Below are positions 6,235 through 61,336 of a stretch of DNA of 64,000 bases, piece after piece. Each line of letters begins with the position of its first letter. Within the stretch, counting starts at the first letter, position 1. The position numbers were made by a program, and so were the translations under genes. Below the pieces are notes generated by a model that was not told where the DNA came from, made no database searches, and was given only the letters and a program-made list of their open reading frames with translations. Source of the DNA: a virus; IMG/VR virus record IMGVR_UViG_2974543594_000001, positions 6,679-70,678 of that record; one strand, written 5' to 3'.

Positions 6235-6236
6235 TT

Positions 6237-6977: not shown

Positions 6978-7062
6978 GAATAAACGTGGCGACACGTCGG
7001 GCGGGTACTTCTCCGGCCTTCCAAGAGGAGGGCCAAATTAAAGGTTTTGGATTTGAAAATAA

Positions 7063-7083
7063 CCCCTCCTAAGAGGGGTTTTT
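7063..7083. terminator. bidirectional intrinsic terminator between convergent tail and lysis units
   Basis: CCCCTC-ctaa-GAGGGG hairpin flanked by an A-run upstream and TTTTTATTT downstream. Overlaps the 3' end of ORF 7069..7386. Confidence 0.6.
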
Positions 7084-7386
7084 ATTTGATAACTCTTTAA
7101 TCTCACCAAGGTCTTGTTCTAATGCTGAGTAAAAGAAGTTCAACTTACCGATAGGTATTGGTGCTCTTTTAATAATAGTTAGTATGTGACGGACTCTTGG
7201 TGACTCAATTCTCTTAAGCATCTCATCGATACCTCGACGTAATGCTATATTTGAATTGTTAAATAGAACATTAAGATACAAGGTTAGTAGTGCATCTGGA
7301 TACTCATATATACCTACATCATCTCTGAATTCCTGTTTAGGTAATTCACCATTACGTTCTCTGCGAAGATATGTTTTAACTCTCAT
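7069..7386 (-). CDS. hypothetical protein
   Basis: 105 aa ORF at the end of the inverted lysis unit. Confidence 0.4.
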   Translation of the reverse strand: MRVKTYLRRERNGELPKQEFRDDVGIYEYPDALLTLYLNVLFNNSNIALRRGIDEMLKRIESPRVRHILTIIKRAPIPIGKLNFFYSALEQDLGEIKELSNKNPS

Positions 7387-9539: not shown

Positions 9540-11660
9540 ATGGCTAAAGATGAATTACCAACAGTTGACCCAGCACAGTCTGCCAACTTAACTGATTGGA
9601 AAAATGAACCTAATGTAACTGACCTGAAGTCAGATTACGATTCTGCATCTAGCGCTCATAGTGCTCAGATGAGCAAGATTACTGCTTGGCTAGATAACCT
9701 GAATGTTACTGGCCCTGCTAAACCTAAAAAGTTACCAGGCAGGTCTTCAGTACAGCCGATGCTTATTCGTAAGCAAGCTGAATGGAGATACTCAGCTCTT
9801 ACTGAACCATTCCTGAGTACAGATGAATTATTCTCTGTATCTCCAGTTACATGGGAAGACAGACAAGCTGCTATTCAGAACCAGTTAGTACTTAATTATC
9901 AGTTCAATATTAAAATTGATAAGGTACGTTTCATTGATGATTATGTTCGTACTGCTGTTAATGAAGGTACTGTGATTGTTCGTGTTGGCTGGCGTGAACA
10001 AACTCAAAAGATTAAAGAGACTGTTCCTGTATACGCATACTACCCAGCACAGACTCCTGACCAAGTAGCTGCTATTCAGGAAGCTCTTCAGTTAAAGCTG
10101 GAGAACCCTAATGCATACCACAACCTACCAGATGACATTATTGCCTCTGTAGATTATTCCTATGAAAACCGTGGTGCATATGTAGCTAAACAGGAAGGTA
10201 CTCAAGAGGTTGAGTATGACAAGATTATTGTTAACCAGCCTACTGCTGAAGTAGTTAACTCACAGAACGTAGTAATTGACCCAACTTGTAATGGTGATAT
10301 CAAACAAGCTCAGTTTGTTATTTATAGTTTTGAGACTTCTAAGTCGGATTTAGAGAAAGATGGTAGATATAAGAATCTGGATAAGATTTCTGCAAGTATG
10401 TCTAATCCTCTTAATACTCCTGACCATATGACTGAAGACCAGTCTGGTTTCAACTTCAAAGATGAACCACGTAAGAAGTTTATTGCATATGAGTATTGGG
10501 GATATTGGGATATCAATGGTGATGGTAAAACTGTGCCAATCGTAGCTACCTTTGTTGGTAATACGATGATTCGTCTTGAAGAGAATCCATTCCCGGATAA
10601 ACAGATTCCATTTGTTATCGTTCCTTATCTGCCTGTTACTCGCTCTATCTACGGTGAGCCTGACGGTGCTTTACTGGAAGATAACCAGAAGATTATTGGA
10701 GCTACTACTCGTGCCATGATTGATATTCTGGCTCGTAGTGCTAATGGTCAAACTGGTATTCGTAAAGACATGCTGGATGTGACTAACAGACGTAAGTTTG
10801 ATAAGGGCGAAGACTATGAATTCAATGCAAACGTGGACCCAAGACAAGGTGTCTATATGCATACGTCTCCTGAGATTCCTCAGTCAGCGCCTCTGATGAT
10901 TCAGTACCAGAACAATGAAGCTGAGTCTCTTACTGGTGTTAAATCATTCTCACAAGGTATTGCATCACAGGCTTTAGGTGATGTAGCTGCTGGCATTCGT
11001 GGAGCATTGGATGCTGCTTCTAAACGTGAATTAGGCATTCTTCGTAGATTGGCTCAGGGCATTGTAGATATTGGTTATAAGTTTGTATCTATGAATGCTG
11101 AGTTCTTATCTGAAGAAGAAGTTGTACGAATCACCAATGATGATTTCGTATCAGTTCGTAGAGATGAGTTGGCTGGAAACTTTGACCTTAAGTTAAGTAT
11201 TTCTACTGCTGAGGCAGATAATCAGAAGGCTCAAGAATTGGCATTCATGCTTCAGACTATGGGTAATAGCCTTCCATTTGAAATGTCTCAGATGGTACTG
11301 AGTGATATTGCTCGACTAAGAAATATGCCTGACTTAGCTAAACGAATTGAGAAGTATCAGCCTCAACCAGACCCACTTGCACAACGCAAAGCTGAGCTGG
11401 AAATTGCATTATTAGAGGCTCAAATCGCAGAAACCCAATCTAAAGCGATTGAAAACAGAGCTTCAGCAGGGTATAAAGCTACACAAGCTGGAAACGTTCA
11501 GAGTGATACAGACCTTAAAAATCTGGATTATGTTGAACAAGAGTCTGGTGTTAAACAGGCTCGTGATGTTGAACGTATTCAAGCTCAAGCTCAAAGCCAA
11601 ACTCAAACCAAGATTGTGGACTATATCCTCAAGACTGGTAAGCCACTTAGTGAAATCTAA
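9540..11660 (+). CDS. portal protein (N4 gp59-like)
   Basis: 706 aa. Size and position (before scaffold and MCP) fit T7/N4-type portals. Divergent from the lysis unit. Confidence 0.7.
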   Translation: MAKDELPTVDPAQSANLTDWKNEPNVTDLKSDYDSASSAHSAQMSKITAWLDNLNVTGPAKPKKLPGRSSVQPMLIRKQAEWRYSALTEPFLSTDELFSVSPVTWEDRQAAIQNQLVLNYQFNIKIDKVRFIDDYVRTAVNEGTVIVRVGWREQTQKIKETVPVYAYYPAQTPDQVAAIQEALQLKLENPNAYHNLPDDIIASVDYSYENRGAYVAKQEGTQEVEYDKIIVNQPTAEVVNSQNVVIDPTCNGDIKQAQFVIYSFETSKSDLEKDGRYKNLDKISASMSNPLNTPDHMTEDQSGFNFKDEPRKKFIAYEYWGYWDINGDGKTVPIVATFVGNTMIRLEENPFPDKQIPFVIVPYLPVTRSIYGEPDGALLEDNQKIIGATTRAMIDILARSANGQTGIRKDMLDVTNRRKFDKGEDYEFNANVDPRQGVYMHTSPEIPQSAPLMIQYQNNEAESLTGVKSFSQGIASQALGDVAAGIRGALDAASKRELGILRRLAQGIVDIGYKFVSMNAEFLSEEEVVRITNDDFVSVRRDELAGNFDLKLSISTAEADNQKAQELAFMLQTMGNSLPFEMSQMVLSDIARLRNMPDLAKRIEKYQPQPDPLAQRKAELEIALLEAQIAETQSKAIENRASAGYKATQAGNVQSDTDLKNLDYVEQESGVKQARDVERIQAQAQSQTQTKIVDYILKTGKPLSEI

Positions 11661-11669
11661 TATCTCATA

Positions 11670-12023
11670 ATGAGGACACACGACATGAGTCAAGTAGAAC
11701 AAATTCGAATCACTATTGAACAGAAGAAAGAAATGATTGCTTTAGGTGATGCTCTTTCTCGCATCGTTAAGAATCGTGATTGGAAGAAACTGGTTGATAC
11801 CGAGTTCTTCGAAAACGAACCTAAGCGACTTGTATCTCTTCTGGCTCACCCTGCAATGCAGGACGAGGCTTCCCAGACTGAAATTCGTAATCAGATGTTA
11901 GCCATTGCGTATTTCCGTCAGTTCTTGGCTCGCACGGAAATGTTTGCTGAACAGGCTCGTGGTTCTCTGCCTGCTGACCAAGCAACCGAAGTCGAGCTGT
12001 TAGAAGAAGACGTACAGGAGTAA
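11670..12023 (+). CDS. hypothetical head protein
   Basis: 117 aa ORF between portal and scaffold. Confidence 0.4.
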   Translation: MRTHDMSQVEQIRITIEQKKEMIALGDALSRIVKNRDWKKLVDTEFFENEPKRLVSLLAHPAMQDEASQTEIRNQMLAIAYFRQFLARTEMFAEQARGSLPADQATEVELLEEDVQE

Positions 12024-12029
12024 TAGCAT

Positions 12030-13142
12030 ATGGCTGGAAACAGTGTTGAACAATCTATTCTTAGTATGTCTGATGCTGATTTCCTAAATGCTCCGATGCC
12101 GACCTTTGAGTCGGCATCTTCACATGAGCAAACGGAAACTCAGACTGAAAAGAAAGAAGAAGTAGAAGTTGAAACAACTACTACTCAAACTGAAAATACA
12201 GAAGATACTGAGACTGAAACTACTGAAGAAGTTGATACTCCTACAGAGCAAGAAACTCAATCTACTGATACTCAGAAAGAAACAGAATCAACTGAACAAG
12301 AGAATAAATCTACTGAGGCTGAACCTGAAGTAGCTGATGCTCAAGCTCAGTTGAATAAGTTGTTTGCTCCATTCAAAGCGAATGGTCGAGATATTAAAAT
12401 CGACTCAGTTGATGAAGCTATTAAGCTAATGCAACAGGGAGCAAACTATAATAAAAAGATGGCAGCCTTGAAACCATCTTTAAAAGTTCTTAAGATGTTG
12501 GAAAATAATGGTCTGCTTGATGAGCAAAAGATTACTTATCTAATCGATTTAGATAAAAAGAATCCTGATGCTATCAGCAAACTCATTAAAGAGAGTGGTA
12601 TTGACCCTCTCGATGTAAATACACAGGAAGAACCGAAGTACACACCTGGTAATTACTCAGTCTCGGATGCACAGGTTAATCTAGATACGGTGTTGGATAG
12701 CATTGAGCATACTCCAACATACAATCGGACAATGACCGTCATTCTCGATGAATGGGATGATAACAGTAAACGTGCACTTGCAAATGAACCAAATCTTATT
12801 CCACTCATCAATGAGCATGTGGCAAATGGAATCTTTGACACAATCGCCTCTGAGATGATGAAGCAAAGAGCATTGGGGAATTTGAGTGGTCTTTCAGATT
12901 TACAGGCGTATGAAGCTATTGGTAAACAGCTCGCTGCTCAGGGCGCATTCAATAAGAAGCCAACCCAAGAGCCAGTAGAAGTTAAACCAAAAGTACCTAC
13001 GCAAGATGATACTGAAAGGGCTGCAAAGCGTAAGGCTGCAAGTCCATCCAAACAGACTCAGGCAACTAAAGAGCCAGACTTAAATCCTCTGTCTATGTCT
13101 GATGAAGAGTTTGAGAAAGCGTTTAACTCTAAGTTTCGATAA
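12030..13142 (+). CDS. scaffolding protein
   Basis: 370 aa. Extremely acidic T/E/Q-rich N-terminus. Directly upstream of MCP. Confidence 0.5.
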   Translation: MAGNSVEQSILSMSDADFLNAPMPTFESASSHEQTETQTEKKEEVEVETTTTQTENTEDTETETTEEVDTPTEQETQSTDTQKETESTEQENKSTEAEPEVADAQAQLNKLFAPFKANGRDIKIDSVDEAIKLMQQGANYNKKMAALKPSLKVLKMLENNGLLDEQKITYLIDLDKKNPDAISKLIKESGIDPLDVNTQEEPKYTPGNYSVSDAQVNLDTVLDSIEHTPTYNRTMTVILDEWDDNSKRALANEPNLIPLINEHVANGIFDTIASEMMKQRALGNLSGLSDLQAYEAIGKQLAAQGAFNKKPTQEPVEVKPKVPTQDDTERAAKRKAASPSKQTQATKEPDLNPLSMSDEEFEKAFNSKFR

Positions 13143-39803: not shown

Positions 39804-40166
39804 TTAGCGCCTTCTGAAATGTTCTTTAAACTTCTGAGTCATTTGTTCCTCATCTAACTCAAGAGATAGTTGTTCTGGGACAGGCATTGCAGCTTCACCA
39901 GCTAAAGCAAAGTAAGCAGCCCCATCGACATAATCGTCTAGCTTAAAGCTCCCACCAGATGCTCTAGCTGCTTTCAAGAAAACCATGAACATCCAACCCT
40001 GCTCCTCTGTAAGGTTCAGGTTATACATGGCATTGAATGAAGCTACAGTTCGAGCCATAGAACGCTCTGACTCTTGGTCACGCTCACTTGCTCTATCACC
40101 AATACAACGAGATGCTTCCTGCAAAATGGCAGGAGCACTATCAATAGGGAACTGTAAAATTGTCAT
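39804..40166 (-). CDS. hypothetical protein
   Basis: 120 aa ORF. Confidence 0.4.
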   Translation of the reverse strand: MTILQFPIDSAPAILQEASRCIGDRASERDQESERSMARTVASFNAMYNLNLTEEQGWMFMVFLKAARASGGSFKLDDYVDGAAYFALAGEAAMPVPEQLSLELDEEQMTQKFKEHFRRR

Positions 40167-43483: not shown

Positions 43484-44724
43484 CTCATGAATCGAGGAGG
43501 ATTACCATAAAAGACTACTCTCGTAGTAGCCCTACTAACTGCAACATACAGTAAACGTGCTAATTGGCTTATGTCCTTACAGACACATAAATCACCAATG
43601 TCTATGTAGACAGTATGGTAGGTAGAACCCTGAGATTTATGGACAGTTGAAGCATATGAAAATCGCAAGTCTGCGAATCCATTCTTCAATCTGAAGTACT
43701 CAACCCAATCTTTTCTGTCAGCAGCTAACTTAATGAACTTCTGAAGTTCACTGTAATCTACTGGCTGACGTACATAAGTACCAAGACCAATATCAACGAA
43801 ATAGTAAGGTACTACATCGTCATAATTTATTTCACTTACGTAATAAACAGCATAGTTCTTTTCAATAACAGTGCGTTTAGAACCACACTCGATACTGTTG
43901 TTAGAGACAACATTGTCACCAACTTGAACTATAGGTGGTAAGTTCTTCTTGGTTCTTATGTATTGGTTGTAGCCTTGAACGGTATTATTGGTAAATACGA
44001 GGATTTTATGACCGGGAGATTCCTGTTGGATGAAATGAGTTTGCATTGCGCCTCTCATTGCATCGTCCCCTAAGAAGTCTATGACTCCGGGAACTGGAAT
44101 TATTGGTCTGAAGACACCCGTTTCTACTGTCTCACGTAACTGAGCATTGAGTAGAGTTAACTCTGGACTATTATTAGTCCTCATTTGGGTATTAAGATAT
44201 GAAGTGAGATAGCCTGAATTGAATACAGGGCTTATCTGCTCTGACACTGGCGCTAACTGACAATGGTCACCGATAAAAACTATCTTACAGTTTTTACGAG
44301 TGCCTTCTTCAATTAGGTTCAGTAATGGAGTATCTGCCATTGATGCTTCGTCCAGCAGGACTAGAGTATCTGACAGTGGTTGAAAATTCTTACCTTTAGT
44401 GGTGATGGTTTCACCAGTCCTATAGTCATCTCTGACCATTAAACCTAAAGCAGAATGTATGGTTTTTACTGTGGTTTTAAATCTTTCCTGAAGTACTTCA
44501 GCAGCTTTATTAGTTGTAGCTGATACAACAACATTGTTGAGAGGCTCAGCACCTAATATGGTTGCAATACGATGACTGCTTGGAAGCATCTCAATCATAT
44601 GATTGAGCATATATGTCTTGCCTACTCCGGGTGGACCAGAGATAACCATATGCTTTGCTGGAGTACACAGAAAAGACATAAACTGCTTTGCAGCAGAGTC
44701 CTGACAACTAGTCAGATTTGCCAT
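43480..44724 (-). CDS. SF1 Dda/RecD-like DNA helicase
   Basis: 414 aa. Walker A is GPPGVGKTY. LLDEASM. TVHKSQGSTY. Confidence 0.8.
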   Translation of the reverse strand: MANLTSCQDSAAKQFMSFLCTPAKHMVISGPPGVGKTYMLNHMIEMLPSSHRIATILGAEPLNNVVVSATTNKAAEVLQERFKTTVKTIHSALGLMVRDDYRTGETITTKGKNFQPLSDTLVLLDEASMADTPLLNLIEEGTRKNCKIVFIGDHCQLAPVSEQISPVFNSGYLTSYLNTQMRTNNSPELTLLNAQLRETVETGVFRPIIPVPGVIDFLGDDAMRGAMQTHFIQQESPGHKILVFTNNTVQGYNQYIRTKKNLPPIVQVGDNVVSNNSIECGSKRTVIEKNYAVYYVSEINYDDVVPYYFVDIGLGTYVRQPVDYSELQKFIKLAADRKDWVEYFRLKNGFADLRFSYASTVHKSQGSTYHTVYIDIGDLCVCKDISQLARLLYVAVSRATTRVVFYGNPPRFMR

Positions 44725-44974
44725 CTTCGTGCCTCATGAAAGCTAACTTAAGTAATTCATACTTGGTTCTAGCAATGAACTTAACCTGGATATCTTTATC
44801 CATTGGTTCAATTCGTTCAGGCCCCCTATATTCACTGACATACAGTTCAGCCCTACTCAATAACTCAAGCAGGGCTTTACCGTCTTCAATGGGGAGAATG
44901 ATTTTAAAATCATAACTGAACTGAACACACATCATGTTTCCACGATATGATTTGTTTGGAGATTCTTCTGACAT
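44708..44974 (-). CDS. hypothetical protein
   Basis: 88 aa ORF. Confidence 0.35.
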   Translation of the reverse strand: MSEESPNKSYRGNMMCVQFSYDFKIILPIEDGKALLELLSRAELYVSEYRGPERIEPMDKDIQVKFIARTKYELLKLAFMRHEDGKSD

Positions 44975-45042
44975 ATTCCCCCTAGTATTTTAAGTAGAGG
45001 TCCAGTATCCAAAGAATGCCCAAGATGAAAGTCATGATGATG

Positions 45043-45390
45043 TTATTCATGCTTCGTAGAGGCACGTAGAAGTGATTCTACGACGATTTGTTCAGGAGAC
45101 TTATCGTATCCCTTGCCCGGCTGAGTAAACGCTTTAGAATCGTTCTCAACGAGTCTATCAACGATACTCGCGCAGTTCATTGATTCAATGTTCATGTGCT
45201 TAGAAATAGCTGCCATTAACATTGAAATGAAGTATCTGCGGTCTGTTTCGTACAGTTTCTGTTCCTCAGCTGATTCAAAGTCTACCTGAAAGTGTTCAGG
45301 TATAGGTTTACCAGCAGGACTAAAATTAATAACACCAAATTTCACTATTTTCATTTGAGCACCTATGCAGATGTGAAGTAACCAAAGCAA
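45043..45390 (-). CDS. hypothetical protein
   Basis: 115 aa ORF. True start may be the internal MKIVKFG. Confidence 0.35.
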   Translation of the reverse strand: MLWLLHICIGAQMKIVKFGVINFSPAGKPIPEHFQVDFESAEEQKLYETDRRYFISMLMAAISKHMNIESMNCASIVDRLVENDSKAFTQPGKGYDKSPEQIVVESLLRASTKHE

Positions 45391-45403
45391 CTGCCGGAGG
45401 CAG

Positions 45404-46084
45404 TTACTTGATTTGCACCATTGTTAACCGTCCCTTCTCGAACACTGCACCAGTGTCGATATAGTTTTGGTTATGGTATTGCACAGGGTCTTTGGCAGGT
45501 GTGTGTCCGAAATAGAATTCGTCAGCACCTTTAATGACAGTACCTCTTGAGTTTTGGTTTTTAACCATACGTTCACGATTCCAAAGCAAAGCTTCTACGT
45601 CAACGTCTTTACCAAACTCGTACTGATTTGAAGGGTAGTCTGCATGGCAGATAACAATAGTTTTGTCATCTACTGAGACTTCAATGATACCCGGCAGGTC
45701 TGCTGCCTGAGTAAAGAGTTCGAGCACCTCTGGTTTCTGTTCTTCTGGAACTTCCAAAATCCATGTGCCTCCATTATGAAACCAGTTCATATAGGCTACA
45801 TCTCCATCATGGGTATTTGGTTCAGAAGCTAATGCATTGAGTGCCATAACTTCATGGTTACCCAATACAGTTTTAAACCAAGGTTCCTTGATTAGGCGTA
45901 AACAGCCTAAACTATCAAAACCTCGGTCAATTAAATCACCAACAGAAATGAGTAAATCAGTTTGAGTATCAAACTGGTTAGCCCATAACTGCTGTTGTAA
46001 TTCTGTGAGGCAGCCATGCAAATCTCCGACAACGAAGATTCGTTTATATTGGCTACCATCAATCTTCATATAGAGATTTTTCAT
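45404..46084 (-). CDS. calcineurin-like metallophosphatase (lambda PPase/ApaH-like Ser/Thr phosphatase)
   Basis: 226 aa. GDLHGC, GDLIDRG and GNHE motifs. Confidence 0.75.
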   Translation of the reverse strand: MKNLYMKIDGSQYKRIFVVGDLHGCLTELQQQLWANQFDTQTDLLISVGDLIDRGFDSLGCLRLIKEPWFKTVLGNHEVMALNALASEPNTHDGDVAYMNWFHNGGTWILEVPEEQKPEVLELFTQAADLPGIIEVSVDDKTIVICHADYPSNQYEFGKDVDVEALLWNRERMVKNQNSRGTVIKGADEFYFGHTPAKDPVQYHNQNYIDTGAVFEKGRLTMVQIK

Positions 46085-46152
46085 ACGACCTCCAGTAGTA
46101 GCTAGAATACGCCCCCATAGGAGGCGTATCCGAGCGCTACTGCATCGATAGA

Positions 46153-47595
46153 TTAATCTACGATGCGTTCGTGCATTTCTGCTACCTGACCGGTAACTTT
46201 GCTGACCGCCGCTTCAATTGCCGGAGCAACTGCGTTAGCGATAACTTCGTTAAAGGTCGGCTCTTTCACTTTCGGCTTGCTCTGCTCTTCGAGCAGCTTA
46301 CGCTGGGCCTGAATGGTCAGAGCGGAATCCAGCAGTGCTTTACCGCTGATTTGCTCGATAACAGTACCCGGCTCCTGATACTGGAGCTGGTGCAGCTTGG
46401 CACGTTTAACCACTTCAGCGATAACCGCCGGAATGGTACCTGCCAGCGCTTCGCCAACCAGAGTCAGGTCTTCAGATGCGTCGATGGTGTCACGACCGTA
46501 CAGGCGAACCAGTTTTTCAACTGCTTTCGCATCCGGCGGAGTCACATCGATGATGGCATCCAGACGGCCCGGACGCAGCATCGCTGGGTTGATGTTTTCG
46601 AGGTGGTTGGTAGTCAGAACGGTGATGATGCGAGAAGATTTAGTGTCGATACCATCCAGAATGTTCAGGATATCGTCCATCTTCACGCTACGTTCACCGG
46701 ATACAGCACGGTCGATATCTTCACAGAAGATAACGCACGCTTTGTCGCTGTACTGCTTAGCGAACTGAATCGCATCAGACAGCTCATCAGAGCGCGGCAC
46801 GTAAACGTAGGTAACGCCAGTTTTAACCGCGATAGACGCAGCAACTGTCGCAGCCATAGTTTTACCAGTACCGTATGGCCCACCCAGCAGTACGCCGCGT
46901 TTAACCGGCATGTGGTTGGCGATGCAGTCTTCAACGCGCTCAATCGGCGTGAACAGGTTGGTTTCAATCAGCTGGTTAACATCATCGGAATAAACCAGAG
47001 AATCGCGCGAGATACCTTGCAGATTCATGAATTCCGGTTCCGGCATTTCCAGCAGGTCGCCATCGTTATCGCGGAAGCGAATCTTAATCGCCTGACCCAT
47101 ATAGATGGATTCAGTGCGCAGTTTGTCTTCCACGGTATCGAACAGCAGCTCGATGGTACGCTCATCGGCGCGCAGTACTTTGGCTACCAGCTCAAAGCTG
47201 ATACGGCCATCTTTCTTGGCGACAGAGGTCTGAACAAAGCCTTCAACCTGCGGCAGAGAGAAGCGGCCCCACGGCACTTTTTTGGTACGGCCATAGCCGA
47301 CTTGTACGTCCAGCATCTGCGGAGGATTAGAGCCAAAGAAGCCCGGAGTCGCTTCAGCAGCAGCCCAGCCGTAACGTTCGGTCAGCGCGTTCATCAGCGC
47401 ATGGGCACCATCCCACGGGAATACGTTGTAGGTACGGCGCACAACAACTTCTTCTTCGTCGTACTTCTGACGACGCTTCAGCAGGTCGATAGCATCACCC
47501 AGCTTCATCTGCTCGGGCAGAATGATTTTTTCGCCGTGACGCACGACTTCTGCTACGTGAACTTCTTTTTCGTCTTGTTGAAGAGTTTTAGCCAT
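46153..47595 (-). CDS. classic-clade AAA+ ATPase with about 230-aa unique N-domain, encoded on a host-like GC-rich island
   Basis: 480 aa. Walker A is GPYGTGKT. Walker B is VIFCEDID. Sensor 1 is TTNH. SRH is PAMLRPGRLD. GC is clearly above the flanks and a long antisense ORF is a side effect. Confidence 0.7.
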   Translation of the reverse strand: MAKTLQQDEKEVHVAEVVRHGEKIILPEQMKLGDAIDLLKRRQKYDEEEVVVRRTYNVFPWDGAHALMNALTERYGWAAAEATPGFFGSNPPQMLDVQVGYGRTKKVPWGRFSLPQVEGFVQTSVAKKDGRISFELVAKVLRADERTIELLFDTVEDKLRTESIYMGQAIKIRFRDNDGDLLEMPEPEFMNLQGISRDSLVYSDDVNQLIETNLFTPIERVEDCIANHMPVKRGVLLGGPYGTGKTMAATVAASIAVKTGVTYVYVPRSDELSDAIQFAKQYSDKACVIFCEDIDRAVSGERSVKMDDILNILDGIDTKSSRIITVLTTNHLENINPAMLRPGRLDAIIDVTPPDAKAVEKLVRLYGRDTIDASEDLTLVGEALAGTIPAVIAEVVKRAKLHQLQYQEPGTVIEQISGKALLDSALTIQAQRKLLEEQSKPKVKEPTFNEVIANAVAPAIEAAVSKVTGQVAEMHERIVD

Positions 47596-47675
47596 TTCGA
47601 TTTACCTTTTCAGATTGGGATAAAATTACATTGTTTGAATGAAGAGAGTTAATTTCTCTTTCTTTTTCCGAGGCA

Positions 47676-47690
47676 AGCGCCGGAGGCGCT
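47676..47690 (-). promoter_or_regulatory. GGA-triloop hairpin AGCGCC-GGA-GGCGCT upstream of the AAA+ gene
   Basis: 6-bp GC stem with a 3-nt loop and no U-tract. 80 nt upstream of ATG 47595. Confidence 0.25.
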
Positions 47691-47826
47691 TTACCCTTTA
47701 CCGAACACAGGAATCACTCTGTAACCTTGATTGCGAGCAATCCGGGCTACATGTGTTTTCTTGGTTCGAATAATAAGAGTGCTGGGAATGCGAAATACAT
47801 CCCAAGCAATAGGAGATTTGGACACG

Positions 47827-48639
47827 TTACTCACCAAACTTAAGTTTGTTTTGGAAAGTACTGGATTTGACTTCATCTCGGGAAAGCTTGCCGTCCTGAA
47901 TGAAATACTGAGTAATTAACGTATTAACCATACGAATACCCAACGTATTCATCTCATAGTTATCTTTGATAAATGCTGAGATATCAGAGACAGCTTTATC
48001 TCTCTTAACTTCTGGAAATAAATCCAGATACATTGAGAGAGTAGATGAGCCTTTAAGTATATTAATTAAAGACTCCAGACTGACTTTGACAGTGTTGTAT
48101 ACCAAACCAACACGACCTAAGAACTCAGTCTTCACACCAAAGCTACGGAGCTTATCCAGAGTAATATCTGGTTCTCCGTTGAATGCTCCGGCGAAGACAA
48201 ACAGGACGTTACTTACAGGCACGTCCACATACTTGCCATAGTCGCCAAACACTGAGGTACACTCAGCTTCTAGAACCTTCAGGAATTCATTCTGAACTCC
48301 ATTAGTAGATTCATGGGCCAACTCACTATTGTTATTGCCTGCGATAAATAACTTGTCGAATTCATCTACAAAGCAAATAACAGGATTACCGTTGGCTTGG
48401 CGTAAAGGAGCTAAAGCTTTGCTTAAGCTATTACCCGATAAGCCTTCTTTGGTTAGCTGAGCAGCATTAATTTCGATGTAGTCCATCTTATGCTGGTCAG
48501 CCAGAGACTTAATTAAAAAGGTTTTTCCAGTACCACTTTCGCCAGTCAGAATGAAGTGAGGTCTCAACTGACATTCACTGGCTTTAAAGATAGAAAAGAT
48601 ACGGGAAATATCTTTCCTGAGTTGTTCTTGCTCTTTCAT
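47827..48639 (-). CDS. ClpX/HslU-like AAA+ unfoldase module (no N-terminal zinc finger, no cognate ClpP seen)
   Basis: 270 aa. ILTGESGTGKT, QLTKEGLSG, ICFVDEFDKL, NGVQNEFLKVLE, VLFVFAGAF and FLGRVGLVY parallel ClpX blocks. Confidence 0.6.
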   Translation of the reverse strand: MKEQEQLRKDISRIFSIFKASECQLRPHFILTGESGTGKTFLIKSLADQHKMDYIEINAAQLTKEGLSGNSLSKALAPLRQANGNPVICFVDEFDKLFIAGNNNSELAHESTNGVQNEFLKVLEAECTSVFGDYGKYVDVPVSNVLFVFAGAFNGEPDITLDKLRSFGVKTEFLGRVGLVYNTVKVSLESLINILKGSSTLSMYLDLFPEVKRDKAVSDISAFIKDNYEMNTLGIRMVNTLITQYFIQDGKLSRDEVKSSTFQNKLKFGE

Positions 48640-49049
48640 TAGCAGATTTTCCTAAGACTTTTGTCATTAACTTGGATATACCAAGGCAGGTTTCTGCACA
48701 GATGTTTTTTAAGATTCCAGAGAGTATCATTCATGTTGTTATATTCATCGGGATGAACATAACGAACCAGACGTACATCACAGTCCAGAATCTCAATACC
48801 CAAAGTGAAATCCACAATGGTTCCATCAGCCATGAGACTCACGTAGTGAGCTATACACATATCTGAGTAGATAATAACTACTTCAACAACGCCTACAGCT
48901 AATCCAGTCTTTACAGCCTGAGCAGCATTGATATGGCATTTGTAGTTATACTGAGGAACAGATTTATCAGGGATTCCTACTACAAGCTTATGCTTGTAAT
49001 CTTTGAGAGCTTGCTCTCTTGCCAGTAACATCGCCTTCTTTAGAAACAT
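48639..49049 (-). CDS. hypothetical protein
   Basis: 136 aa ORF. Confidence 0.4.
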   Translation of the reverse strand: MFLKKAMLLAREQALKDYKHKLVVGIPDKSVPQYNYKCHINAAQAVKTGLAVGVVEVVIIYSDMCIAHYVSLMADGTIVDFTLGIEILDCDVRLVRYVHPDEYNNMNDTLWNLKKHLCRNLPWYIQVNDKSLRKIC

Positions 49050-49052
49050 GGT

Positions 49053-49310
49053 TTACTCCAAGTATTTTCTGAATACGCCTGCGAAGCAGGAGTCTCCCTC
49101 TTGAAGTCCATGCTCCTGACATAAGCCATGATGGTCTAATCGACAGTCATGACCGACATAATCTAAAGCATCTTGGATAGCCTGCTTTAAATCCTCTGGC
49201 AATTCGAATTCTGGTTCAGGTGGTGGTTGTTTCCATCCACATAACTGACAGTCCATACCGTCAACATAAGAACCGCATTCGGTATTTTGGCAATACAGGT
49301 AAAGACCCAT
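49053..49310 (-). CDS. Cys/His-rich small protein (putative zinc-binding)
   Basis: 85 aa. CQNTEC...CQLC and HDCRLDHHGLCQEH. Confidence 0.4.
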   Translation of the reverse strand: MGLYLYCQNTECGSYVDGMDCQLCGWKQPPPEPEFELPEDLKQAIQDALDYVGHDCRLDHHGLCQEHGLQEGDSCFAGVFRKYLE

Positions 49311-49315
49311 ATGAC

Positions 49316-49345
49316 CTCCAAAAAAATGCCCTCACAAGGAGGGCA
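49316..49345 (-). terminator. intrinsic terminator
   Basis: TGCCCTC-acaag-GAGGGCA. On the minus strand it is followed by U7 and then GGAGG for the next gene. Confidence 0.55.
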
Positions 49346-49390
49346 AAAACATCTGAAAGGTAAACTTAAAAAGATTACCCGCCACGTATA

Positions 49391-50488
49391 TTAACTGTTT
49401 ACGTGAATCAGTTGTCCGAACTTAACTTCTGCTCTTGGGTTATCAAGGCAAACCCAAATAACATTAGGTACAGGTGCTTTCTCCATTTGACGACAGTCTA
49501 AATCAGAGAAGACAACTATCAGTTCGGGTTTCTCTTTAGCTGCGTGGTCATACACGCAACCTAATGAGGTACCTCCTCTACCAGTGAATTCACATTGACT
49601 GATATCATCTCCTTCCTCTAACTCATACACATTATGAATCTTCGTATCGAAGGTGCAGACAGTAATCCTTTTTGGATTAAGCTGTTTTTTAATGGCATGA
49701 ATTTCACTGATGTATACAGTGAACTGTGCATCAGTAACTGAACCAGAGATATCAGTATAAAAAATGATATGCTCTAGTCCTTCAGAGTTTAATGAAGGAA
49801 GATAGATATCTGGAAGAAAACGTCTATTGACCTTCTTCCACGAATAATCATTTCGAGTCATCTCATTAACAAAGTTTCTGAGAATGTCATTCCACGGCAG
49901 TTTTGGATTTAGTAAATCCTCTAGATAGGCTCGTATGTCTCCGGGAATATCGCCGTATTGACCACGTTGAGACGCAGCAATACTGCTTCGGATAAGCATA
50001 GAGTCAATCTGAGTATTGACCTGTTCATCCGATAGACCTTGGTTTTTTTTAATATCTAAACCAAATCCACCAGAAGGTATTGGAGGGGGATTACTGAACA
50101 GCAAATCGTAGATTTGTGGAGCACTCATACCATCGTACTTGTGGTCCATCAATCCAGACTCCATCGCATAGCCAGCGTCATCCAACATATTATTTATGTA
50201 GTAGTCGCAGGCATAGTTCCAGATGGTTGGATTTCTTCCCGATAGTCTCGACATGTGTTTTAACACAACATGCCAGGTTTCATGGGCGAGAAGTGTCACC
50301 CTCATCGGCCTGGATAAATCCATAAAGAACTTTGGATTTATTTCTATACTCAACCCATCAGTACAAGCTGTGGGTACATCATCATTCCAGTTCAACTGAA
50401 GTGAGCAGAACATAGAACAGATGAAAGTATTCTTTCTTATCGAGAACAAATCTACTTTTGCTAAATCTAACGCTTTATCTTTATCCAT
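49391..50488 (-). CDS. VWA-domain protein with N-terminal HExxH metallopeptidase-like domain (DUF2201-like)
   Basis: 365 aa. HETWHVVLKH in the N-terminal half. C-terminal half has a VWA-like DxSGS motif (DISGS). Immediately downstream of the MoxR ATPase. Confidence 0.55.
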   Translation of the reverse strand: MDKDKALDLAKVDLFSIRKNTFICSMFCSLQLNWNDDVPTACTDGLSIEINPKFFMDLSRPMRVTLLAHETWHVVLKHMSRLSGRNPTIWNYACDYYINNMLDDAGYAMESGLMDHKYDGMSAPQIYDLLFSNPPPIPSGGFGLDIKKNQGLSDEQVNTQIDSMLIRSSIAASQRGQYGDIPGDIRAYLEDLLNPKLPWNDILRNFVNEMTRNDYSWKKVNRRFLPDIYLPSLNSEGLEHIIFYTDISGSVTDAQFTVYISEIHAIKKQLNPKRITVCTFDTKIHNVYELEEGDDISQCEFTGRGGTSLGCVYDHAAKEKPELIVVFSDLDCRQMEKAPVPNVIWVCLDNPRAEVKFGQLIHVNS

Positions 50489-50499
50489 GCAGGGTCTCC

Positions 50500-51516
50500 T
50501 TAGAGCATACCTGCACCAGACTCGTTAGCGTATTTCATCACCCAATCCTGAACTTCAGGAACTTGAACAATGGCAGGCCGTGCTTTAACAGCACTACTTA
50601 AAGTTACGATTTGGAATTCAACCGGCAGTTTATTGATAAACTTCATCAACTGAGCACCGTTATTGGGGTCAATCTTAGAAGCAACATAACCAGCATATGC
50701 GTATTTAATGTCTGGTCTGTTCTCAATTTCAATGCCTTCTGGGTCTTTGAGAATTTCTTCGATAGTCTTAATCTTTCCATAGATTGAAGTATATTCGATG
50801 AACTCTCTCGCAGCCCCCGGACCAATTATCCCAGAGATAATGCCAAAGTCATTATCAATGGTGAGTTCTAAGCCATGAGAAACACGGCTGGTAAAATCCC
50901 AAGTACGAGGACATGGGAATGGGTTTTTAAGGTCCTGTGGGTTGAATTTATGGAACAGGTCTTCCTTAAACATTAAGAAAGATAGGATGCGATGGTCGAT
51001 GGCATTATCCAATGCCCAGATTTTCCAATCATCGAAGTTCGCTTCCAGTTCCAAATTGACGATACGTGACAGAGTTGCACTACTCATTGTAGTGGTGATA
51101 GCTCCATCAGTATCTTTGTTACCTGCCGCTGCAATATATACGTCAGGATGAAGTTTGGTTTGACCAACCATCCCATCCAATAACTTATACGCAGCAGCTT
51201 GAACAGCTTTTGGCGCTGTATTCATCTCATCGAGGAACAGCAGCCAGCCGTTATAACCTTCAGGTATTTTATCCCCTAAGATGGGGATATCTTTTGGTGG
51301 GTGATAAACCGAACGCCCGTTTTCAATATTAGGAAATCCGAGCAAGTCAGTTGGGTCACACTGACCTAAGCGTAGGTCAATAACCAGCAACTTAAACTCT
51401 TTGGCTATCTGACGAATAATCGCAGATTTACCAATGCCCGGACTACCTTTGATAAACGGGACCAATTTAGCGCCGAAAGCACGCTCTATGGCACGCTTAA
51501 TAGCTATTGGTCTCAT
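50500..51516 (-). CDS. MoxR/CbbQ-type AAA+ ATPase (AAA_5)
   Basis: 338 aa. Walker A is GSPGIGKS. Walker B is LLFLDEMN. Paired with the VWA protein. Confidence 0.65.
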   Translation of the reverse strand: MRPIAIKRAIERAFGAKLVPFIKGSPGIGKSAIIRQIAKEFKLLVIDLRLGQCDPTDLLGFPNIENGRSVYHPPKDIPILGDKIPEGYNGWLLFLDEMNTAPKAVQAAAYKLLDGMVGQTKLHPDVYIAAAGNKDTDGAITTTMSSATLSRIVNLELEANFDDWKIWALDNAIDHRILSFLMFKEDLFHKFNPQDLKNPFPCPRTWDFTSRVSHGLELTIDNDFGIISGIIGPGAAREFIEYTSIYGKIKTIEEILKDPEGIEIENRPDIKYAYAGYVASKIDPNNGAQLMKFINKLPVEFQIVTLSSAVKARPAIVQVPEVQDWVMKYANESGAGML

Positions 51517-51531
51517 ACATCACCTACCCGA

Positions 51532-51858
51532 TTAAACTTTGAGAAGGCGGCGAGAATCCATCAGGAATGGAATTACGTCACCATCTTCATCGACGATGTG
51601 GACAATGCAATCAAAAATCATTGCTGAGTTTGGGGTATTGCTGGCACCACCTTCGAGGTCCCAACCTCTTTTAGGGTTGGCAAGAATTTCGGTGACAATA
51701 CCCGGACGGTCAACTGTCGGAAAACGGAAGAACCCTTCATTAGCAGGGTTGATGATGACGATATCACCTACTGACACCGGCTGGTGAGATACCACCATTG
51801 CATTGAATGCATTACGCAGTGCATCAATCTTTTCTAAACTGATTTCTGGCTTAGACAT
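51532..51858 (-). CDS. hypothetical protein
   Basis: 108 aa ORF directly upstream of the MoxR gene. Confidence 0.4.
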   Translation of the reverse strand: MSKPEISLEKIDALRNAFNAMVVSHQPVSVGDIVIINPANEGFFRFPTVDRPGIVTEILANPKRGWDLEGGASNTPNSAMIFDCIVHIVDEDGDVIPFLMDSRRLLKV

Positions 51859-51878
51859 TTTTGTTTACCTCTTTCAGA

Positions 51879-51905
51879 TGAAAAATAAGGAGCCAAATGA
51901 CTCCT
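51879..51905 (-). terminator. intrinsic terminator
   Basis: AGGAG-(8 nt)-CUCCU then UAUUUUUCAUC on the minus strand. Confidence 0.4.
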
Positions 51906-51909
51906 ATAC

Positions 51910-51926
51910 AACGCACGGAGTGCGTT
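51910..51926 (-). promoter_or_regulatory. GGA-triloop hairpin AACGCAC-GGA-GTGCGTT overlapping stop of 51925..52335
   Basis: 7-bp stem with a 3-nt loop and no U-tract. Confidence 0.25.
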
Positions 51927-52335
51927 AGGCTTCCGGGTTTAAGAAATAGATGCCCGGTAAACCAACATCGATGGTGTATTGAGATTCTTGCCGGACAATC
52001 TGGGGAGTAGTGCCAAATTGCATGTAGAAATGCGCCAAAATCACTGAAGCTTTTGAGGTTTCCATCATGACAATATGTTCCGGCAGACCATCTTCCAGCA
52101 TGTACTTTTGAATTTGTTCGATTACAGCAGCACGTTCAGCAGCTTCAGGAGACATGGTTTTTTTAGCCATTTCAGCTATAAAGTTCATGCCACCTTCCAT
52201 ACCCAGCTTAGAACCGTATACAGCAGTCAGAGTACGAGCACAGTTAATAAATGGCTCTTCTTTTTCACTGTGCAGCCATGACAGTACAGTCATGATGGTT
52301 TCTTTGCTTGGCAGTACTACTTCAGTCTTTTCCAT
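51925..52335 (-). CDS. hypothetical protein
   Basis: 136 aa ORF. Confidence 0.4.
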   Translation of the reverse strand: MEKTEVVLPSKETIMTVLSWLHSEKEEPFINCARTLTAVYGSKLGMEGGMNFIAEMAKKTMSPEAAERAAVIEQIQKYMLEDGLPEHIVMMETSKASVILAHFYMQFGTTPQIVRQESQYTIDVGLPGIYFLNPEA

Positions 52336-52645
52336 CTGTTTTACCTTCAGATTGATTGAGAATTTGAGTTAACAGCTTACTGATACCTTCTCCGAGTTCA
52401 TCTACTCGCTCAGCTATCTGCTGTAATGAAGTGAGTTCGCTTTCACGAATCTCTTTGTTGATTAAGAATTTGGCTAAGCTATTAAAGTTCTGGAAGTAAC
52501 CACAGTTAGTTAACTGGTCCTGACCTGCTTTAACGCCACTCTTAATCTTTTTACGTTCAACCAAAACAAACGTGTAGTTGTTGGACGAAACAATATATTT
52601 ATCACCCAACTCTACGTTAAGTTTTGAACCTGATTCTTTAGCCAT
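52322..52645 (-). CDS. hypothetical protein
   Basis: 107 aa. AGGAG RBS. Confidence 0.4.
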   Translation of the reverse strand: MAKESGSKLNVELGDKYIVSSNNYTFVLVERKKIKSGVKAGQDQLTNCGYFQNFNSLAKFLINKEIRESELTSLQQIAERVDELGEGISKLLTQILNQSEGKTDGKD

Positions 52646-53418: not shown

Positions 53419-54279
53419 TTACTTAAATGATACGAACGGGGTAACACTACCCTGCGTCATGTAAGTTGGCAGAGCACCGTTCCATTTCTCAATAGACCGA
53501 AGGTCTTTCATCTGAGGATAGCGGTTCAGGGCTTCACCTACTTTAGCGATAGCTTCTGCTTCAGCATTTGCCTTCATGATAACGGCATCAGCTTCTGCCT
53601 GTGCTTCTTTACGCTTAACGTCAGCCGCACCGTCAGCCTGAGCACGAGCCATGTTCGCTTCAGCTTCACGCTGCAATACTTCCTGAGTACGTTGCAGAGT
53701 GGTCTGGTTCGCAGTCACTTTCGCGTTGATAGAGGCGATAACGGTTTCCGGGTATTCCGGCTTCCCAACGTAGGACAGGCTGATGACGTCGATACCAATC
53801 GGAGCCATCTCTTCCTGCATTTCTTTCAGCGCAGCATCCAGAAGGTCAGCTTTACCGCCATCAATGAACTTGTCGGTAGTCATACGACTAGCCAGACGGT
53901 TCAGGCTATCAGCGATTTTCTGCTTCATGTCTGTATCGGTAATGTCATCGATACCCTTACGATATGTTTGGAAGACAGTAGTCACTTTGGTCGGATTGAC
54001 CTTGTAAGCCATACCGATGTGATAGCCGATGGTTGTACCATCCGACATTTGGAAGTTAAACGTATCGTCATACGTCTTCATCTGTTTGAAGGTCGGGAAC
54101 GTATAGACGGTTGTGTTCCAACCAGTCCAATAACGACCGACACCGACGACTTCGCCTACGCCTTTATCATCGCCCAGCTTGTTCACTTTAATACCGACGT
54201 GACCAGGTTCTACACGGTCACAGCCAGTTAAAGTTAATGCACCTAATACCAGTGCAACTGTCAAAAATACTTTTTTCAT
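53419..54279 (-). CDS. SPFH/band-7 (stomatin-prohibitin-flotillin-HflK/C) lipoprotein
   Basis: 286 aa. Signal peptide plus lipobox LTGC. SPFH core (VEPGHVGI...). C-terminal Ala/Glu-rich coiled coil. GC-rich island. Confidence 0.65.
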   Translation of the reverse strand: MKKVFLTVALVLGALTLTGCDRVEPGHVGIKVNKLGDDKGVGEVVGVGRYWTGWNTTVYTFPTFKQMKTYDDTFNFQMSDGTTIGYHIGMAYKVNPTKVTTVFQTYRKGIDDITDTDMKQKIADSLNRLASRMTTDKFIDGGKADLLDAALKEMQEEMAPIGIDVISLSYVGKPEYPETVIASINAKVTANQTTLQRTQEVLQREAEANMARAQADGAADVKRKEAQAEADAVIMKANAEAEAIAKVGEALNRYPQMKDLRSIEKWNGALPTYMTQGSVTPFVSFK

Positions 54280-58195: not shown

Positions 58196-58431
58196 GATAT
58201 GGCTTCCATTGATTTATGGATTTGAGCGACGAAGCTATCGTCGGGATTGTGCATCCTGTCATCACTTAAAGGACAACATTCGCAATATACGTTTGGGCAT
58301 CTAAACGTTTTACATATTTCATCCTTTGGTTTGTAATCCTCATTCTCGTATAGTCTTAATATCCCTATAAGAATGATTATGAGTTCTTGGTTCATGGACA
58401 CCTCAATAGGTGCAGACAACAAACCTGTCAT
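58192..58431 (-). CDS. small Cys-rich protein, MNxELIxIL paralog family
   Basis: MNQELIIILIGIL...CKTFRC...CECC. Confidence 0.5.
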   Translation of the reverse strand: MTGLLSAPIEVSMNQELIIILIGILRLYENEDYKPKDEICKTFRCPNVYCECCPLSDDRMHNPDDSFVAQIHKSMEAIS

Positions 58432-58906
58432 CTAACAATGGTTCGATACGTTTCTTAACGTCTCTCCACTGAAGTTCTCCAGCACCACATCCCGGTCGAG
58501 GCAATACAACTTTCTGCCAACCATATTGGTTAGCCAGTTGAACCAACTGTCTGCATGAACGTTCAATCAAATCGATTTTAGCTTTACATGCCCAGCCTGG
58601 GATTGTCTGACCTTCCGGGAAGAACTTATGCTTAACAAAGTTTGTACCATCACTGATTTCAGTGATTGGTTTAACTGGAAACGATACTACCCAGATACCA
58701 TTGTGAGTTAGTAATGCATGTACATTATTGCCTTCCTGCGCAATCTTAAGTCCCAGCACTTTATCTAAGCCCGGAACTACCATACGCATTTGCTTGGCAA
58801 TACCTGCACCCATTACAGCAGCACCATTACTTTTTACAAATCCATTGGTTGTAATGCATACGGCATCACAATCCATCTCAAGGATATTGCCTTTGGCTTC
58901 TAACAT
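58403..58906 (-). CDS. Macro domain protein (ADP-ribose binding/hydrolase)
   Basis: 167 aa. GNILEMDCDAVCITTN...AAVMGAGIA and the C-terminal LPRPGCGAG diphosphate-binding loop. Confidence 0.6.
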   Translation of the reverse strand: MLEAKGNILEMDCDAVCITTNGFVKSNGAAVMGAGIAKQMRMVVPGLDKVLGLKIAQEGNNVHALLTHNGIWVVSFPVKPITEISDGTNFVKHKFFPEGQTIPGWACKAKIDLIERSCRQLVQLANQYGWQKVVLPRPGCGAGELQWRDVKKRIEPLLDDRFVVCTY

Positions 58907-60904: not shown

Positions 60905-61336
60905 TTACGATGCCAGTGCATTCAGAATCGCACTGACTGCGCTGGTGGATGCGGTATGCTCGGTCTGCTCTTTACGGCGATAGAGCTGAACCTGCAACTT
61001 CGGCAGCTCCTGACCGCTACCAGCTTCCAGTTCACCACCCATTTTGACCAGAGCTTTCAGCAGCTCATTACGAGCAGCAGCCTGGTTGTTCCAGACTTCG
61101 TTGTTACCACGGATAACCAGCTCGCTCATGGTATCCAGCGGCAGGCCATACGGCAGAGACAGGAACGTATCCACCATATCCCCGTTTTCATCAGGCATCG
61201 GAACGGTTACGCCGATGTTGATGAAGAATTCAGCTTGCGGACGGTCGCCAGACTGCTGACGATTTCCGTTACCCTTACCACCCAGAGCTGCGCCGATGAT
61301 AGAACGAGCTTCGTTAGAGTTGTTGATAGTAGCCAT
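60905..61336 (-). CDS. hypothetical protein on GC-rich island
   Basis: 143 aa. Host-like GC and codon usage. Flanked by upstream GAA-triloop hairpins and a downstream terminator. Confidence 0.5.
   Translation of the reverse strand: MATINNSNEARSIIGAALGGKGNGNRQQSGDRPQAEFFINIGVTVPMPDENGDMVDTFLSLPYGLPLDTMSELVIRGNNEVWNNQAAARNELLKALVKMGGELEAGSGQELPKLQVQLYRRKEQTEHTASTSAVSAILNALAS

Follow-up and report, generated by a model that had tools for sequence, protein, structure and literature searches.

In cellular pairs such as NorQ/NorD, CbbQ/CbbO, RavA/ViaA and CoxD/CoxE, the gene of a helix-2-insert ATPase of the MoxR type adjoins that of a VWA protein with an intact MIDAS site, and such pairs are reported to remodel a client protein or put a metal into it (PMC9976466, PMC13036017). 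Bacterial 'ternary' conflict systems combine MoxR, vWA and FtsH-type AAA proteins (Kaur et al. 2020, eLife; PMC7159879). In phage N4, the adjacent genes gp24 and gp25 were counted among 14 core genes, the former listed as 'Unknown' and the latter as 'vWFA domain' (Chan et al. 2014; PMC4193335), and Wittmann et al. (2020; PMC7650795) likewise give both as signature genes of N4-like phages. Here, we analysed a viral DNA stretch of 64,000 nucleotides (the window; positions 6,679 to 70,678 of IMG/VR record IMGVR_UViG_2974543594_000001, so that the record coordinate equals the window coordinate + 6678) and in it a six-kb block of minus-strand genes at 45404-51516, in which orthologs of N4 gp24 and gp25 stand together with two further ATPases, a phosphatase and small proteins. 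On balance, we consider it probable that this block is not one system but a mosaic, made up of four or more modules that were inherited independently and are transcribed separately. Two of its genes belong to the core set of all N4-like phages; the rest are mobile accessories.

The region is 100% identical to Klebsiella phage KpCHEMY26 (MN163281 / NC_049467; Schitoviridae, Humphriesvirinae, Pylasvirus); identity is 96% with phages Pylas and MY01 and about 80% with the Salmonella and Shigella phages of the genus Ithacavirus. It belongs to the minus-strand middle region of KpCHEMY26: early genes and those of the RNA polymerase II subunits are found upstream of it, and helicase, DNA polymerase and primase follow downstream. 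The phosphatase stop codon ends at position 45404, and the MoxR-like start codon begins at 51516. GenBank already labels the block as containing a Ser/Thr phosphatase, a 'metalloprotease', a 'CLP protease', a metallopeptidase and an NTPase. An earlier note, made from the letters alone, had named six proteins here, and these are real minus-strand open reading frames (ORFs) with exactly the boundaries 45404-51516, their domain calls being right at the superfamily level in Pfam, PHROG and solved-relative searches. The list was nevertheless incomplete, as it missed a 136-aa (amino acid) ORF at 48639-49049 and a doubtful 61-aa ORF at 47691-47876. The three ATPases represent classical AAA (480 aa), ClpX/HslU-like (270 aa) and helix-2-insert MoxR/midasin-type (338 aa) proteins and, since each comes from a different AAA+ clade, they are not tandem duplicates.

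Several hairpins lie between these genes. The MoxR-like and VWA genes are separated by 11 bp, and their unit is closed by an intrinsic-terminator-like hairpin at 49327-49345 (minus strand; terminator scan and RNA fold) followed by a run of seven T, where a terminator is annotated in Pylas. A second terminator-like hairpin (51888-51905, minus strand) is located upstream of a 108-aa ORF that precedes the MoxR-like gene. On the other side of the block, a perfect 12-bp stem-loop at 46105-46131 (minus strand) begins 21 nt past the stop codon of the 480-aa AAA gene; its folding energy is -33.7 kcal/mol (z -5.0) and none of 200 shuffled sequences folded as well. The Pylas record carries a terminator annotation at the same position, and the stem-loop is likely a terminator or a 3' stabiliser separating the AAA gene from the phosphatase gene. 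The spacer between the ClpX-like and the 480-aa AAA genes (47596-47826, minus strand; sequence and RNA folds) contains a GC hairpin (47676-47690, minus strand; 6-bp stem, 3-nt loop) directly after the 61-aa ORF. The KpCHEMY26 and Pylas records both annotate this minus-strand ORF, which shares 50 bp with the 3' end of the ClpX-like gene; the matching region of Shigella phage B2 has 71% protein identity over 56 aa, with only a shorter ORF annotated there, and its coding status is doubtful. Taken together, the hairpins and terminators partition the block, giving at least three or four transcription units. An Rfam scan of 44500-52500 gave no match. In the same interval, sigma-70-like promoter matches were depleted (6 found, 16.8 expected) and terminator-like hairpins were enriched (12 found, 5.6 expected), which fits transcription by the phage RNA polymerase II.

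The modules also differ in their distribution. Homologs of the gp25-like protein occur in 665 phage records, full-length homologs of the ClpX-like protein in 163, those of the 480-aa AAA protein in 61 and homologs of an 85-aa protein, which is restricted to Humphriesvirinae, in 16 (15 of them full-length). Neither these numbers nor the division into transcription units agrees with the single toolkit that the earlier note had seen in the block. Gene by gene, protein identity between KpCHEMY26 and B2 takes the values 95%, 89%, 78%, 72% and 46%, with the 480-aa AAA protein at 89%, the MoxR-like ATPase at 78% and the VWA protein at 72%. The mosaic reading also draws on the position of the genes, which lie between gp25 and the helicase in a slot that is hypervariable among Schitoviridae and differently filled from phage to phage. 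In N4 it holds a dCTP deaminase, gp27-gp32, rIIA/rIIB and gp35-gp36, in Erwinia phage Frozen gp25 is followed by dCTP deaminase, Dam, ThyA and rIIA, and in phage LUZ7 the slot is empty, while in KpCHEMY26 it contains two small proteins, two ATPases and the phosphatase. Within the first 32 kb of N4, no homolog of the block genes other than gp24/gp25 was found.

The MoxR-like ATPase (338 aa; 50500-51516, minus strand) is the ortholog of N4 gp24 (38% identity over the full length, E 5e-81), and the VWA protein (365 aa; 49391-50488, minus strand) is that of gp25 (37% identity, full length). The N4 pair has the same adjacent gene order, the same position in the middle region and the same Walker, HExxH and MIDAS residues, and we found no substantive difference between the two pairs. 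The ATPase matched PF07728 (26.3 bits, cutoff 22) and phrog_1297; this AAA_5 match is weak, no NCBIfam model was matched, and the sole solved relative retrieved by sequence was the AAA domain of midasin. Its Walker A (SPGxGKS), Walker B (LDE), N133 and S150-R151 are invariant across KpCHEMY26, N4, LUZ7, Frozen and B2, which represent five subfamilies. The VWA protein matched both PF13203 (DUF2201_N, 'putative metallopeptidase'; E 3e-43, 148.7 bits, cutoff 23.2) and PF09967 (VWA-like; E 1e-24, 87.1 bits, cutoff 26.4), and a search by sequence for a solved relative retrieved none. In the same five phages (34-38% identity) its zinc site HExxHxxxxH (H69, E70, H73 and H78) is invariant, as are the MIDAS residues of the DxSxS...T...D type (D246/S248/S250, the GRGGT307 motif and D329) and a WNxAxDxxIN motif. 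In comparison to the cellular MoxR-VWA pairs, the phage VWA protein thus has an extra N-terminal domain, the zinc-peptidase-like DUF2201_N, and the only plausible protease site of the block appears to be the one in this protein.

The gp25 homologs come from every Schitoviridae subfamily sampled as well as from several jumbo and Vequintavirinae-like myoviruses. As a pair found family-wide, MoxR/VWA is core machinery of Schitoviridae and does not count as an accessory gene of counter-defence. The literature searched yielded no functional study of N4 gp24/gp25 or of DUF2201, and no cellular neighbourhood of gp25 homologs was obtained, as the best 120 matches of the profile search were almost all short fragments or phage-sized contigs of about 70 kb. 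The bacterial MoxR-vWA-FtsH systems described by Kaur et al. resemble the phage genes in having a MoxR-vWA pair with a further classical-clade AAA protein, and in phage Frozen the corresponding trio is contiguous. However, the third component of the bacterial systems has two FtsH-type AAA domains and is accompanied by effectors and Ubl-conjugation genes, whereas the phage AAA protein has a single domain, is solitary in many phages and is absent from N4, so that the likeness is one of analogy only.

Two annotation problems concern the same pair. In phage Pylas, an intron of about 860 bp with a gene for an HNH homing endonuclease interrupts the MoxR-like gene (Pylas sequence 5404-7273). The KpCHEMY26 gene is uninterrupted, yet it bears the GenBank note 'ATPase split by intron', apparently copied from Pylas. 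The gp25 family itself, phrog_1314, is labelled 'HNH endonuclease' in PHROGs, and this label has passed to RefSeq N4 gp25 (N4 record 11164-12306) and to many of the 665 records. It is contradicted by the DUF2201_N zinc-peptidase and VWA domains of the family, and an HNH motif was not detected.

The second main subject is the 480-aa classical-clade AAA ATPase (46153-47595, minus strand). Its ATPase domain contains the stretch NPAMLRPGRLD and is preceded by about 225 aa with a helix-grip-like alpha+beta fold. GenBank calls a protein with this sequence an 'FtsH metalloprotease', a label that we rejected: the FtsH equivalog model gave 49 bits (cutoff 600), and PF00004 was the only domain found, with no M41 peptidase domain. 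Nor does the protein contain any membrane-like segment, hence the N-terminal membrane helices of FtsH are missing. The Walker B motif reads VIFCED, and the order ED, in place of DE, is invariant in 44 homologs of 58-100% identity and, among more distant relatives, is found in 119 of the 125 representatives that could be scored. The segment from strand 2 to helix 2, the site of the aromatic pore loop 1 in classical AAA proteins, has 7 residues fewer than its counterpart in Cdc48; in the AlphaFold model (pLDDT 82.7) only two residues remain between strand 2 and helix 2, and the aromatic pore-1 motif was present in none of 138 relatives. An ED Walker B was described as exceptional for Bcs1 and YjoB (PMC9565160), and pore loop 1 is absent in Bcs1 (PMC7994207). 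The phage motor has both of these features in common with Bcs1, a mitochondrial translocase of folded proteins, and YjoB, a chambered chaperone of B. subtilis. In a Foldseek search against the PDB, Bcs1 structures occupied ranks 1-5 over about 430 aligned columns and YjoB came at rank 21. The phage protein differs from both in having no membrane helix, and when its N-domain was searched alone the N-domains of Bcs1 and YjoB were not retrieved. Judged from these two traits, it is the motor that is of the Bcs1/YjoB type. Relatives by the N-domain are numerous (1,135 at E <=1e-3 among representatives of 50%-identity clusters) and are mostly 470-510 aa long; the N-terminal extensions of those with 560-860 aa matched no Pfam family.

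The 480-aa gene stands out by its codon usage as well. GC content of the 46-48 kb interval is 0.50 in comparison to about 0.41 elsewhere, 37 of 41 Leu codons are CTG, Arg is encoded only by CGT and CGC, and TTA, CTA and TCA do not occur. The codon adaptation index (CAI), calculated with the E. coli weights of Sharp and Li, was 0.628, the highest of the 59 ORFs of at least 90 aa in the window. The major head protein (identity confirmed) reached 0.598, the single-stranded DNA-binding protein (SSB) 0.408 and the neighbours of the 480-aa gene 0.20-0.31. The homologs behave alike, with 0.669 in B2 (neighbours 0.23-0.33) and 0.613 in Frozen (neighbours 0.29-0.48). At positions where the residue is the same in KpCHEMY26 and B2, 129 of 426 codons differ (30%), and because the bias is kept in relatives despite these differences it is maintained by selection. 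Recent horizontal transfer as the source of the high GC content was considered and rejected, as the bias is kept in B2 (third-position GC, GC3, 0.45) and Frozen and there was no match to a PLSDB plasmid. We also rejected as a gene the antisense 493-aa ORF at 46171-47652 (plus strand), which runs in the codon register of the AAA gene; it is an artefact of the codon bias, since the frame stays open because the AAA gene has no TTA, CTA or TCA codons. Mass spectrometry did not find the B2 homolog among virion proteins (PMC11654681). Together with the codon bias and the 3' hairpin, this absence suggests that the 480-aa AAA protein is likely an abundant non-structural protein, and it is probably very highly expressed.

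Records with a homolog of the 480-aa protein are scattered among unrelated phages. Full-length homologs were found in Humphriesvirinae, Erskinevirinae, some Schitoviridae of Pseudomonas, the unrelated podovirus KPP25 and one huge uncultured phage. In the Delftia myovirus PhiW-14 the homolog lies between UvsX and the gp41 helicase, and in a phage-like contig of about 100 kb from Salmonella assemblies it adjoins HU, SSB, helicase and primase genes. In Gordonia phages (e.g., Keelan), an approximately 31%-identical homolog is placed in reverse orientation between the tail chaperone and tape measure genes, and in the Mycobacterium prophage McProf one of similar identity (about 31%) belongs to a lysogeny-expressed accessory region near a toxin cassette (PMC8191103). 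No conserved neighbour of the gene could be recognised in KPP25, PhiW-14, Keelan, Frozen, McProf and the Salmonella phage-like contig.

The ClpX-like protein (270 aa; 47827-48639, minus strand) is an AAA+ ATPase core matched by PF00004 and AAA_2, and its closest solved relatives are the ATPase modules of ClpX (E 1e-14). The NCBIfam equivalogs of ClpX were not reached (63.5 bits with a cutoff of 359, and 54.3 bits with a cutoff of 370.75). The alignment to E. coli ClpX starts at about residue 81, so that the N-terminal C4 zinc-binding domain is missing. The core of the HCLR clade is retained, with Walker A GESGTGKT, Walker B VDEFDK, the Arg finger FLGR and the sensor-2 Arg LGIR, and the 'GVQ..LK..E' box of ClpX aligns as well. 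However, at pore-1 the protein has GLSG where ClpX has GYVG, so the aromatic residue is gone, six residues are deleted at the position of the RKH loop, and a 33-residue deletion covers the region of the ClpP-docking IGF loop. A replacement loop, AQLTxEGxSGNSL (family consensus EGxSGNSL), is invariant in six homologs from four phage groups, and for this reason it is functional, though unlike the loop of ClpX. As far as these motifs tell, the protein is not a ClpP partner in the known way. Its gene directly precedes the gp24 homolog in LUZ7, while in the T5-like Proteus phage PM135 and the Acinetobacter phage HD01 its neighbours are genes for RNase H, ThyX, a DNA ligase-like protein, primase and SSB. 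A linkage of the PM135 gene to a metallopeptidase was rejected: despite its label 'metallopeptidase', the neighbour is an Rv2179c-like exoribonuclease and has no relation to DUF2201_N.

The phosphatase (226 aa; 45404-46084, minus strand) is a PPP-family Ser/Thr enzyme of the lambda NinI/PrpA/PrpB type, matched by PF00149 (47.9 bits) and phrog_246 (E 2.5e-84), with the motifs GDLHG, GDLIDRG and GNHE in its translation. Full-length matches to NCBIfam PrpA (248 bits, cutoff 326) and PrpB (210 bits, cutoff 332) remained below the equivalog cutoffs, and hence we regard it as a phage paralog and not as PrpA/PrpB itself. It has the PPP fold and the metal-binding motifs in common with lambda NinI and E. 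coli PrpA/PrpB and appears to be an ordinary NinI/PrpA-like enzyme; we know of no physiological substrate of lambda NinI. The 85-aa protein (49053-49310, minus strand; phrog_28967 only) is a putative zinc binder with 7 Cys and 4 His, all kept in B2, arranged as an N-terminal CX4C...CX2C followed by a second His/Cys cluster; no Pfam or other curated family was matched. The product of the 136-aa ORF (48639-49049, minus strand; phrog_6596) behaves as a mobile accessory: it is only 46% identical in B2 while its neighbours reach 89-95%, and it is also present in unrelated siphoviruses.

If the mosaic reading holds, each module would have a role of its own. By analogy with NorQ/NorD, CbbQ/CbbO and RavA/ViaA, the MoxR-type ring would be an ATP-driven remodeller, with the MIDAS site of the VWA protein holding the client. 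The invariance of the fused zinc-peptidase site suggests that the client may also be cleaved, in which case the pair could be a gated, site-specific protease or maturase. Since gp24/gp25 are conserved in every N4-like phage and in many jumbo phages, they would more likely serve phage replication or assembly than host range. The ClpX-clade ATPase, by its sequence, has lost every element for ClpP coupling and threading and is thus a stand-alone remodeller. The 480-aa protein, with its Bcs1/YjoB motor hallmarks and capsid-like codon usage, would for these reasons probably be an abundant, non-threading chaperone or holdase for folded clients. The remaining module would consist of the lambda-type phosphatase and the two small accessory proteins. 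No FtsH-, Clp- or Lon-type ATP-dependent protease is encoded in the block.

Several points weigh against this picture. Its mechanistic steps rest wholly on analogy. In Humphriesvirinae and Erskinevirinae, the ClpX-like, 480-aa AAA and MoxR/VWA genes lie within a few kb of each other, and because the ATPase cluster partly recurs in Frozen and LUZ7 some functional coupling is possible. With regard to the 480-aa protein, the TM-scores behind the Foldseek ranking are low (0.33-0.47), and the sequence profile puts its ATPase domain closest to p97/Cdc48 D2 and not to Bcs1/YjoB. Codon bias is only a proxy for expression; neither a transcriptome nor a proteome was found, and a literature search for Schitoviridae transcriptomes retrieved none mentioning these ATPases.

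We weighed the mosaic against three other explanations. The synthesis offered by the earlier note was that the six genes form one toolkit which unfolds or degrades host proteins at takeover, with the phosphatase reversing host signalling. Every domain of the block is indeed of the remodelling, peptidase or phosphatase type, the gene order in Frozen is ClpX-like, 480-aa AAA, MoxR, VWA, the ClpX-like gene of LUZ7 directly precedes MoxR, and bacterial conflict systems with MoxR, vWA and FtsH-type AAA do exist (PMC7159879). Nevertheless, terminators and hairpins stand between the modules, the distributions are very unequal with each ATPase found alone in unrelated phages, the MoxR/VWA pair is present even where all other block genes are missing, as in N4, and both 'unfoldases' are without a protease domain, a ClpP-docking loop and an aromatic pore loop. 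The term 'proteolysis-related' is apt for the gp25-like protein with its invariant HExxHxxxxH, but not for the ClpX-like protein, which has no IGF loop, nor for the 480-aa AAA protein, which has no M41 domain. We therefore regard a common toolkit as very unlikely. A more restricted proposal would assign only the accessory genes (480-aa AAA, ClpX-like, phosphatase and small proteins) to counter-defence or superinfection exclusion, with the AAA ring sequestering or dismantling a host immune complex. This would suit their sporadic, mobile spread over unrelated phage families, their place in the hypervariable slot between gp25 and the helicase, the occurrence of the 480-aa homologs at accessory or lysogeny-expressed sites in the actinophages Keelan and McProf, and a high abundance of the kind expected from a stoichiometric inhibitor. 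On the other hand, PADLOC models gave only weak, generic AAA matches (IetA 47 bits, TRIP13 24 bits), and nothing that we tested links the block genes to host defence, as the earlier note had suggested for the block. Moreover, the 89-95% identity with B2 exceeds that of the core pair (72-78%), which is unusual for arms-race genes, and in PhiW-14 and the Salmonella phage-like contig the 480-aa homolog sits amid recombination and replication genes. Counter-defence thus seems unlikely to us. The combined idea of host-protein degradation and counter-defence is supported neither by linkage nor by distribution nor by proteolysis motifs, and it is not strictly refuted.

The third explanation is that most or all of the block serves DNA replication or virion assembly, through loading or remodelling of the replisome or through folding or packaging of the virion RNA polymerase (3,600 aa) or of the capsid protein. 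The block lies within the middle (replication) region directly upstream of the helicase and DNA polymerase, and in LUZ7 the ClpX-like, MoxR, VWA, helicase and polymerase genes follow each other without gaps. The ClpX-like homologs of T5-like and Acinetobacter phages adjoin RNase H, ligase-like, primase and SSB genes, the secondary PHROG matches of the ClpX-like protein are clamp loaders, and gp24/gp25 are as universal as the polymerase. Homing introns usually reside in conserved, often essential genes, and the Pylas gp24 gene carries one. Against this, no DNA-binding or clamp-loader signature reached significance, and to our knowledge neither gp24 nor gp25 is counted among the components of the N4 in-vitro replication system. 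N4 itself is without a 480-aa gene, and the 480-aa homolog is not in the B2 virion (PMC11654681). The earlier note had judged that the block looks like something other than DNA replication, and it is true that none of the seven proteins has a documented replication role, their domains being those of remodellers, a peptidase and a phosphatase. What it had held to speak against its own view was that the homologs be universally conserved core replication factors of N4-like phages; gp24/gp25 come close to this by their core status, but no replication role of theirs is known. We consider a replication or assembly function for most of the block fairly unlikely. The mosaic reading can also be taken further. 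The 480-aa AAA protein would then stand as the founding phage member of a large family (its N-domain recurs in at least 1,100 clusters at 50% identity). As a soluble cage or holdase, it would engulf folded proteins, and diverse phages would produce large amounts of it, either for folding a client of their own or for sequestering a host factor. Separately, gp24/gp25 could be an ATP-gated, MIDAS-targeted zinc protease essential to all N4-like phages. We hold this extension to be rather unlikely.

Other genes of the window also deserve mention. An early-region protein of 143 aa (60905-61336, minus strand; phrog_4099) has the third-highest CAI in the window (0.574), which makes it a candidate abundant protein; as a guess, it could be the counterpart of the ssDNA-binding transcription cofactors of N4-like phages. 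An elevated CAI (0.505) was also found for an SPFH/HflC-like lipoprotein (53419-54279, minus strand; phrog_200), labelled 'SPFH serine protease' in GenBank. The gene at 58403-58906 (minus strand) is annotated in GenBank as a macro-domain 'ADP-ribose binding protein'. As macro-domain proteins can reverse ADP-ribosylation, counter-defence is more plausible for this candidate than for the genes of the block. At 39804-40166 (minus strand), an HNH endonuclease gene abuts the DNA polymerase gene, and in phage B2 the polymerase is annotated as two coding sequences with an HNH gene between them (B2 sequence examined, 1129-1677). These HNH genes suggest homing-endonuclease or intron traffic in the replication genes of the subfamily.

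With its annotation already public and its parts drawn from known families, the block does not by itself amount to a discovery. The public labels 'FtsH metalloprotease', 'CLP protease' and, for gp25, 'HNH endonuclease' are contradicted by the sequences, and they are spreading over hundreds of phage records. If the 480-aa protein were a true chambered chaperone or sequestering ring, it would be the first phage example known to us, although no search for others was made. With a non-threading motor of the Bcs1/YjoB type and the strongest translational selection in the genome, it is probably an abundant protein of the infection phase that is worth purifying. The gp24/gp25 pair is universal and uncharacterised in a family of phages used for therapy, and its invariant catalytic sites make direct mutational tests possible. 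The main interest of the locus therefore lies in this core pair and in the probably abundant family of non-threading AAA proteins.

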